Below, in pieces: positions 36,099 to 37,102 of a stretch of DNA of 64,000 nucleotides (positions within the stretch are counted from its first letter, which is position 1; every line of letters starts with the position of its first letter). The DNA is from Escherichia phage NHEP10, in the sequence record PQ511148.1; one strand, written 5' to 3'. The position numbers and the translations under genes are program-made. Under the pieces are notes generated by a model. That model was not told the origin of the DNA, did not search any database, and saw only the letters and a list, made by a program, of their open reading frames with translations.

Positions 36099-36144
36099 AT
36101 TATTTCCTCATTAGTTAATTCATTCTATCATCCGTTTATAAAGC

Positions 36145-36168
36145 AAAAAAGGAACTCCGAAGAGTTCC
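36145..36168 (-). terminator. Rho-independent terminator
   Basis: Hairpin ggaactccgaagagttcc followed by U6 in mRNA sense. Confidence 0.65.
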
Positions 36169-36341
36169 TATCCACATAGTACGCCGTACAGAGGCTCATT
36201 TGAACTTTTAAATCGAATGGGCTTGTATGTAATAGTTCCTTCGGCTTTAGCTTTATCATAAGACTCTTTAAAACGTCTCATTCTTTCTGCTTTGCCTTTA
36301 CGGATTTTATCGAAATTTTCAGAGGTCAGGTCGTTCGTCAT
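36168..36341 (-). CDS. Small hypothetical protein (57 aa)
   Basis: Hand-translated MTNDLTSENFDKIRKGKAERMRRF...; GAGGTG SD; followed by terminator. Confidence 0.4.
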   Translation of the reverse strand: MTNDLTSENFDKIRKGKAERMRRFKESYDKAKAEGTITYKPIRFKSSNEPLYGVLCG

Positions 36342-36380
36342 GCATAATCACCTCTCAGAAAATACCTAAATCGATTTCTC

Positions 36381-36587
36381 TCATCGTTTCCACCATTTCT
36401 TAACTTGAAATGAATCAACCCATACGAGTTGTTTTGGGTCTGCCTTTACAATAGGCGGACAAATTTCTGTAATAGAACCGTCATGATATTCCTTTTCAGA
36501 AATTTTAACACAAAGAGGACCTCCCAATTTAAGGGTGAACCCTGCGTTCAGATTAAGACGTTTAAACTTTGTTTGAACTAGCGCCAT
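36381..36587 (-). CDS. Hypothetical protein
   Basis: ORF track; start set to MALVQTKF after GAGGA SD. Confidence 0.45.
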   Translation of the reverse strand: MALVQTKFKRLNLNAGFTLKLGGPLCVKISEKEYHDGSITEICPPIVKADPKQLVWVDSFQVKKWWKR

Positions 36588-36885
36588 TAATGATGTCCTC
36601 AATAGCCTGACGAGTAGTAATCCACTGGATTTTAATTAACTTGTCATTATATGGTTGTCGTAGAATATCCCGAGATTTCTTAATAGCATATTCGTAAGCT
36701 TCGAAGTTGTTTTGAATTGCTGCTTCTTGAGCATGAGCATAAAGACGGTTTAGTTCAAAACGATTCTTTTTAAGAATCTTTTCGGATTTTTTACGTGCTT
36801 CAGCTTCATTTTTCTTTTGGATTTCTTGTAGCATTTTAGCTACTGCATCTTCTGCTTCTTTATTTTCAATAATCTCGGTAGTCAT
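36562..36885 (-). CDS. Hypothetical protein (107 aa)
   Basis: ORF track. Confidence 0.5.
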   Translation of the reverse strand: MTTEIIENKEAEDAVAKMLQEIQKKNEAEARKKSEKILKKNRFELNRLYAHAQEAAIQNNFEAYEYAIKKSRDILRQPYNDKLIKIQWITTRQAIEDIINGASSNKV

Positions 36886-36886
36886 A

Positions 36887-37102
36887 TTATCTCATTAAAT
36901 TAAAATAAAAACGTCCATCCTCTTCAATACAGAACTCATACTCAACCGGAGTCCCGTTTATCGAAAATGACACGTCATGTGGGTTCAAAGGGTCGATGTC
37001 AAAATTAATTTTAAATTCACGACCCAACAGTTTTACCAAATAAGGGATTGCTTCGTCAAAAGGTTCTTCTAAGTAGTTAGAGATGTCAATTGTCATCCTC
37101 AT
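36887..37102 (-). CDS. Hypothetical protein
   Basis: ORF track; start uncertain, set to first ATG downstream of gene 55 body. Confidence 0.4.

Follow-up and report, generated by a model that had tools for sequence, protein, structure and literature searches.

Escherichia phage NHEP10, an RB69-like Mosigvirus, lacks an alpha-glucosyltransferase gene between genes 47 and 55 and carries the gene set of a predicted DNA arabinosylation pathway

Introduction

If a T-even-like phage carries no alpha-glucosyltransferase gene (a-gt) between genes 47 and 55, has this gene been moved, has it been lost, or is the DNA of the phage modified in another way altogether? The question is raised by Escherichia phage NHEP10, of which a stretch of 64 kb (referred to here as the window) out of a genome of roughly 169 kb was analyzed. 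In T4, T2, and T6 (Tequatrovirus), hmC is glucosylated through the activities of gp42, of alpha-gt, which is encoded between gene 47 and a-gt.2, and of beta-gt or ggt, which are encoded between uvsX and gene 42. The first-pass annotation of the window had stated that T4 carries an alpha-gt gene of approximately 400 aa at this position, and the sequence records agree: the annotated order in T6 is 47, a-gt (400 aa), a-gt.2, a-gt.3, a-gt.4, a-gt.5, 55, and the order in T4 is 47, 47.1, the 400-aa a-gt ORF, mobB, a-gt.2-5, 55, where the a-gt ORF is present in record KJ477684, though unannotated.

Gene Content of the Interval Between Genes 47 and 55

In NHEP10, the 987 bases from 36099 to 37085 hold four short ORFs on the minus strand, as are all genes around the interval, together with one intrinsic terminator, and a gene of 400 aa is not present (Table 1). 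The first-pass annotation had described precisely this content, i.e., four ORFs of 57-107 aa, a terminator, and no alpha-gt, and was accurate with respect to the sizes as well as the terminator; the ORFs are the orthologues of a-gt.2 to a-gt.5 and nothing else. A Pfam search assigned no family to the a-gt.3 orthologue, which would comprise 73 aa if an upstream TTG were used as start codon. The a-gt.5 orthologue overlaps the 3' end of gene 55 and would extend to 97 aa with an upstream ATG inside gene 55. The genes a-gt.2-5 are named by their position only, a small clarification gained here, and it is unlikely that they are accessories of glucosylation, because they are conserved in phages without alpha-gt. 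They appear to be the last genes of a transcription unit that also comprises gene 55 and would end at the terminator behind a-gt.2.

Alignments to other T-even phages locate the difference. In T6 and further genomes of Tequatrovirus, the counterpart of a 2.58-kb stretch of NHEP10 measures 3.91 kb and aligns in two blocks, and the additional 1.33 kb correspond to the region of a-gt and 47.1. DNA identity over this stretch is approximately 72% to T4/T6, compared to 98.6%, free of gaps over genes 47-55, to RB69 (Mosigvirus RB69). The gene order of RB69, 47 / a-gt.2 / a-gt.3 / a-gt.4 / a-gt.5 / 55, is identical to that of NHEP10, and the RB69 annotation of 2003 already lists these genes without a-gt. 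With T4, T2, and T6, NHEP10 shares the backbone synteny (uvsX ... 43 ... 46, 47, a-gt.2-5, 55), but its window is devoid of alpha-gt, 47.1, beta-gt, and ggt.

Table 1. Features of the NHEP10 window at the former beta-gt locus and in the interval between genes 47 and 55 (positions refer to the window; id, amino acid identity).
Feature	Position	Strand	Details
uvsX	18148-19320		flank of former beta-gt locus
Thymidylate-kinase-like nucleotide kinase (RB69 gp45 orthologue)	19419-19967	-	182 aa; 98.9% id to RB69p045; phrog_761 thymidylate kinase
GT-B-fold glycosyltransferase, predicted first DNA arabinosyltransferase (RB69 gp46:47 orthologue)	19968-20867	-	299 aa; at beta-gt position
Thymidylate-synthase-family enzyme, 5-hydroxy-dCMP synthase type (RB69 gp48 orthologue)	20867-21583	-	238 aa; gene 42 position; activity predicted
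Peptidase-U32-like protein (RB69 gp50 orthologue)	21861-23030	-	Pfam Peptidase_U32, E 6.4e-11; 99.5% id to RB69p050
HAD-type phosphatase (RB69 gp51 / HY126 AfhF analogue)	23078-23464	-	99.2% id to RB69p051
Bifunctional sugar kinase/nucleotidyltransferase (RB69 gp52:53 / HY126 AfhE analogue), predicted UDP-arabinofuranose maker	23464-25149	-	561 aa; 99% id to RB69p052/053
Arabinose-5-phosphate isomerase (RB69 gp55 locus-tag orthologue)	25331-25966	-	100% id to RB69p055; Pfam SIS, E 1e-10
DNA polymerase	26007-28718		far flank of RB69-type module
Gene 47 (SbcD-like recombination nuclease subunit)	35079-36098	-	339 aa; 100% id to RB69 gp47, 78% to T6 gp47; lower interval boundary
T4-type middle-promoter-like site before gene 47	36145-36122	-	MotA-box TGCTTTA, 11 nt, TAGAAT
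Intrinsic terminator hairpin, UUCG loop, then T-run	36169-36150	-	directly after a-gt.2 orthologue stop; terminator scan: 8-bp stem, 4 GC pairs
a-gt.2 orthologue	36168-36341	-	57 aa; 73-75% id to T6/T4, 98% to RB69 a-gt.2; Pfam DUF5486, E 4.5e-28
a-gt.3 orthologue	36381-36587	-	68 aa; 69-71% id to T4/T6, 98.5% to RB69 a-gt.3; phrog_1648
a-gt.4 orthologue	36562-36885	-	107 aa; 58% id to T4/T6, 99% to RB69; Pfam DUF2654, E 1.6e-27
a-gt.5 orthologue	36887-37102	-	~69-71 aa; 47% id to T4/T6, 100% to RB69 a-gt.5; Pfam DUF5491, E 5.8e-13
Gene 55 (late sigma factor)	37086-37643	-	185 aa; 91% id to T6 gp55, 98.9% to RB69 gp55; upper interval boundary

Relatives of NHEP10

Judged by its sequence, the NHEP10 window is that of an RB69-type Mosigvirus. 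In megablast searches, JN02, HY126, ST0, HX01, APCEc01, JK45, Shf125875, and about 150 other records aligned to it over 5-25 kb with an identity of 97-99%. The taxonomy of the relatives is Mosigvirus; for JK45, the NCBI record says Tequatrovirus, while current taxonomy puts “jaykay” in Mosigvirus. About 150 records of the Mosigvirus type have at least 90% identity over the stretch from gene 47 to gene 55, and the arrangement of NHEP10 is common to them. HY126 is 98.4% identical over positions 34000-39000, and Shf125875 is a 98.3% relative of the window. Every protein that was compared to RB69, including those of the modification cluster, has 97-100% identity. NHEP10 is nevertheless a separate isolate with approximately 1.4% nucleotide differences to RB69. 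Moreover, the genes for the transferase and the kinase/uridylyltransferase are split by sequencing errors in the RB69 record but intact in NHEP10, and between 45.2 and 46, NHEP10 carries an additional gene, for an HNH homing endonuclease.

This endonuclease gene (32201-32917, plus strand; 238 aa) lies within an insertion at ~32119-32924 on the strand opposite to its neighbors, matches phrog_655 (E 1e-66), and its product shares 43% identity with T4 MobB over the N-terminal half of the latter. JN02, RB69, and JK45 do not have the segment. It matches 21 phage records only, and in 13 of these the match covers 80% or more of its length, as would fit a mobile element with a sporadic distribution.

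JN02 is colinear with the whole 64 kb at 93-99% identity by block, except for a few small indels and one insertion of ~800 bp. Megablast left 39788-39964, 40432-40756, 51063-51411, 53795-53868, and 57867-58071 unaligned to JN02; these short stretches represent either small indels or ORFs that were replaced, in the 55.x/nrd region and the downstream early-gene regions. The most diverged block, at 93% identity, spans 51411-53795.

Arabinosylation Genes at the Beta-gt Locus

The chemistry of DNA modification in RB69-type phages has been described in some detail, and the enzyme activities considered here for NHEP10 are taken from this literature, i.e., from relatives whose proteins are 97-100% identical. 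In RB69, the sugar of the DNA is arabinose instead of glucose, and the phage has neither alpha-gt nor beta-gt; ORF003c was proposed to be an arabinosyltransferase, and Shf125875 was named as sharing the RB69 genes (Thomas et al., 2018, PMC6024577). More recently, the cytosines of RB69 were identified as beta-D-Araf-(1,3)-alpha-D-Araf-5-hydroxy-2'-deoxycytidine, and RB69 gp48 was shown to make 5-hydroxy-dCMP (5hodCMP) (Lee et al., 2026, PMC13326640). In the same study, gp46:47 and gp3 were assigned as first and second arabinosyltransferase, where the role of gp46:47 is a published prediction, and gp55, gp52:53, and gp51 were assigned to the synthesis of UDP-arabinose (PMC13326640). According to the 2026 papers, including PMC13326640, the glycosylated base in RB69-type phages is 5-hydroxycytosine and not hmC. 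Mono- and di-arabinosylated dC, as well as the same two transferase loci, were reported for Mosigvirus NP (Durham Collection paper, PMC13390438). HY126 and the Mosigvirus members of the BASEL and Durham collections (Bas46, Bas47, NP) share this arabinofuranosyl-5-hydroxycytosine (Afh) pathway, and phages differ in how many arabinoses they attach per cytosine, from 1 to 3. As far as the sources go, which include He et al. (HY126) and Mahler et al. (2025) as they are cited in PMC13326640, the biochemistry of the pathway was done on HY126, RB69, and DLP3.

In the NHEP10 window, the stretch from uvsX to the DNA polymerase gene carries the RB69 module in place of beta-gt, 42, and imm. The first-pass annotation had already considered the beta-gt locus replaced, and indeed the 182-aa kinase-like gene and a gene for a 299-aa protein lie between uvsX and the counterpart of gene 42. 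This counterpart belongs to the Pfam family Thymidylat_synt and is 25% identical to T4 gp42 (E 2e-10), compared to 68-91% identity for the core genes that flank it, so that it does not qualify as a T4-like dCMP hydroxymethylase. It has, in contrast, 99.6% identity to RB69 gp48 and is near-identical to the enzyme in PDB entries 9iqc, 9ir2, and 9iqu (E 1.8e-162), and is predicted to be of the 5-hydroxy-dCMP rather than the 5-hydroxymethyl-dCMP type. The imm orthologue of NHEP10 (14594-14839, minus strand; 64% identity to T4 Imm) adjoins sp, far from the 42-43 interval that it occupies in T4/T6; RB69 has the same arrangement, and the position of imm in T4 is taken by the arabinosylation genes.

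The set of genes for UDP-arabinofuranose synthesis, consisting of the isomerase, the kinase/nucleotidyltransferase, and the phosphatase, is present with 99-100% identity to RB69. The 561-aa fusion protein matches Pfam NTP_transferase (E 8.5e-10) and, weakly, kinase families. For the HAD-type phosphatase, the reaction was given as Araf-1,5-P2 to Araf-1-P (PMC13326640). The second arabinosyltransferase would lie outside the window, which starts inside gene 39: the ORF003c/gp3 locus of RB69 is situated between rIIA.1 and gene 39, i.e., just upstream. JN02 has an ORF003c homologue (98.6% identity), and JK45 and RB69 likewise carry a gene at this position. The second transferase of NHEP10 is therefore expected, by analogy with these phages, just outside the window and upstream of gene 39.

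The candidate for the first DNA arabinosyltransferase is the 299-aa protein encoded next to the synthase, for which a confident GT-B model was obtained. The structure of the HY126 glycosyltransferase, 9iqz, is among its structural neighbors, and its top match is the same as the one reported in the literature for RB69 gp46:47. Within the GT-B enzymes, the protein is a distant relative of alpha-gt, located at the former position of beta-gt. Could it be a diverged replacement glucosyltransferase instead of an arabinosyltransferase? Its fold is GT-B/GT4, many of its top structural neighbors use UDP-glucose or UDP-GlcNAc, and neither a Pfam family nor a close homologue of solved structure indicates which sugar it uses. 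However, the gene is clustered with those for arabinose-5-phosphate isomerase, nucleotidyltransferase/kinase, and phosphatase, all of them 99-100% identical to RB69, whose DNA carries arabinose but is free of glucose (PMC6024577, PMC13326640). A role of the 299-aa protein in glucosylation is hence very unlikely, and it is better explained as an arabinosyltransferase.

Search for Glucosyltransferases

Glucosylation could also persist if alpha-gt had been relocated and hmC were modified by an enzyme encoded elsewhere in the genome. Approximately 105 kb lie outside the window, and accessory genes are shuffled in T-even genomes. Homologues of glucosyltransferases were therefore searched for in the window and in the complete genome of JN02 (169,453 bp), which served as whole-genome stand-in. 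With T4 and T6 alpha-gt, T4 beta-gt, and T6 beta-glucosyl-HMC-alpha-glucosyltransferase as queries, tblastn gave no significant match in the window (best E 1.4-8.6), and none of the four had a significant match in JN02 (best E at least 1.5). phmmer --max against 554 six-frame ORFs gave no significant glucosyltransferase match either (best E ~0.45 at 5 bits). For alpha-gt alone, the best tblastn E-values were 2.9 (window) and 1.5 (JN02), and phmmer --max gave values of at least 0.53. For beta-gt and the ggt of T2/T6, whose place would be between uvsX and gene 42, neither tblastn nor phmmer gave a significant match to the window or to JN02.

A tblastn survey of a phage collection found alpha-gt homologues in 657 records. 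Among the best 40 of these 657, the phages with the gene are essentially Tequatrovirus (at least 90% identity), T4-like phages of Klebsiella (~65%), and a few distant phages. The gene lies beside gene 47 in Tequatrovirus and apparently also in the Klebsiella phages. Since a survey of the best 40 matches is no proof that every Mosigvirus lacks alpha-gt, the whole-genome check in JN02 was used for this point. Outside Mosigvirus, Winklervirus CHI14 is also without a-gt between 47 and 55, and in several other genera the gene is absent from this interval by span and annotation.

These results argue strongly against relocation: the whole genome of JN02, 93-99% identical by block, holds no homologue of alpha-gt, beta-gt, or ggt, RB69 was reported to be without these genes and without glucose in its DNA (PMC6024577, PMC13326640), and with a gene 42 counterpart of the 5-hydroxy-dCMP synthase type, hmC would not be made in the first place. 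A relocated alpha-gt is even less probable than a glucosyltransferase function of the 299-aa protein.

A Predicted Arabinosyl-5-Hydroxycytosine Pathway

The explanation that best accounts for the locus, and in which we place strong confidence, is that NHEP10 is an RB69-like Mosigvirus, in which alpha-gt is not part of the gene set and arabinosyl-5-hydroxycytosine would replace glucosyl-hmC. The gene content, the orthologies, the GT-B fold, and the lack of glucosyltransferase homologues in the sequences searched are direct results of the present analysis. That NHEP10 shares the DNA chemistry of its relatives is inferred from them by analogy, with high confidence. In this genus, the interval between genes 47 and 55 consists of a-gt.2-5 and a single terminator/middle-promoter module, and the alpha-gt of T4/T2/T6 would not be in the genome.

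The pathway would start with the ThyA homologue at the gene 42 position, which is predicted to make 5-hydroxy-dCMP; once phosphorylated, this nucleotide would be built into the DNA instead of dC. UDP-arabinofuranose would be provided by the isomerase, the kinase/uridylyltransferase, and the HAD phosphatase, and from it the 299-aa GT-B enzyme would add a first arabinose to 5-hydroxycytosine in DNA. The second arabinose would be added by the second transferase, the homologue of RB69 ORF003c presumably encoded just upstream of the window. The underlying logic, leading from a dCTPase via a ThyA-family modifier of dCMP to post-replicative glycosylation by a GT-B enzyme, is the same as in T4, T2, and T6, but the sugar in NHEP10 would be arabinofuranose, and the genes for sugar-nucleotide synthesis are encoded by the phage. 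Alpha-gt would be dispensable for NHEP10 because a different hypermodification of cytosine is used.

The proposal of the first-pass annotation that NHEP10 does not glucosylate hmC in the manner of T4 is supported by the absence of homologues of alpha-gt, beta-gt, and ggt from the sequences searched, together with the arabinose, and not glucose, published for this group of phages. The gene layout and its biochemical meaning were already described for near-identical phages, in the annotation of RB69, in the 2018 paper on arabinose, and in the papers on arabinosyl-5-hydroxycytosine from 2025-2026. The absence of alpha-gt from the interval is nonetheless a correct and useful diagnostic of a non-glucosylating T-even relative: it predicts how such a phage responds to restriction, to CRISPR, and to type IV defences of the GmrSD/BrxU type, and it explains the inability to exchange these genes with T4.

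The Terminator/Middle-Promoter Module

The spacer of 69 nt between a-gt.2 and gene 47 is made up of the terminator hairpin, the middle-promoter-like site, and the ribosome-binding site of gene 47. On the minus strand, the hairpin reads AGGAACTCTTCGGAGTTCCT, followed by TTTTTTGC, and it is conserved in RB69 and T6; the terminator and middle-promoter module after a-gt.2 as such is a feature shared with T4/T2/T6. The role of the promoter-like site follows from the textbook consensus of T4 middle promoters. In the 64-kb window, the pattern TGCTTNA-N11-13-TANNNT has 17 matches versus 3.5 expected, i.e., it is enriched approximately five-fold, and 12 of the 17 are on the coding (minus) strand. This suggests that transcription from MotA-type middle promoters is conserved in NHEP10.

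Pairwise alignments show that the NHEP10 module is colinear with the one that separates a-gt.2 from a-gt in T6/T4. The latter phages carry a second, similar module after a-gt and before 47.1/47, which consists of a hairpin, GCTTTATA, and TATAAT. Alpha-gt (with 47.1) is therefore bracketed by two like modules in T4/T6, and NHEP10 has one. This arrangement would be compatible with a recent deletion of alpha-gt in a T4-like (Tequatrovirus) phage that left hmC unglucosylated or partly glucosylated, as recombination between the two modules could delete the gene; this scenario, which is about as improbable as relocation, was rejected in view of the ~72% DNA identity to T4/T6 versus 98.6% to RB69, an arrangement common to about 150 Mosigvirus records, the absence of alpha-gt from the interval in Winklervirus CHI14 and, by span and annotation, other genera, and a modification pathway that differs in its entirety. 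That alpha-gt is missing reflects an old state of the whole lineage and not a recent deletion.

The hairpin-promoter modules look like reusable terminator-promoter cassettes at the boundaries of gene modules. It is conceivable, if on balance doubtful, that alpha-gt itself is a cassette that was gained or lost by recombination between the bracketing modules, with NHEP10 representing the “empty site.” The modules are short, and the alignments do not polarize the direction, i.e., gain versus loss. If true, cassette recombination would be one route for T-even lineages to swap genes for DNA modification. A recombination scar, for which the NHEP10 module would have to combine both T6 modules in a clean hybrid, was considered and rejected: up to the start codon, the NHEP10 module is colinear with the upstream one of T6, and its additional resemblance to the downstream T6 module is limited to a short stretch, ACGGA..TGATA.AATGA.

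A UUCG-loop hairpin, AAAGGGCTTCGGCCCTTT, is found again before 47.1/47.2 in T6, T4, and Serratia phage CHI14, with a promoter-like GCT(T)T..TATAAT behind it. The modules are located at 1321-1496 and 2700-2765 of the T6 segment and at ~1244-1300 of the CHI14 segment, and a sister module precedes a-gt. Within the NHEP10 window, examples of the middle-promoter-like motif on the minus strand are found at 1268-1292, 20004-20028, 25178-25202, 32122-32146, 36122-36145, and 56147-56172.
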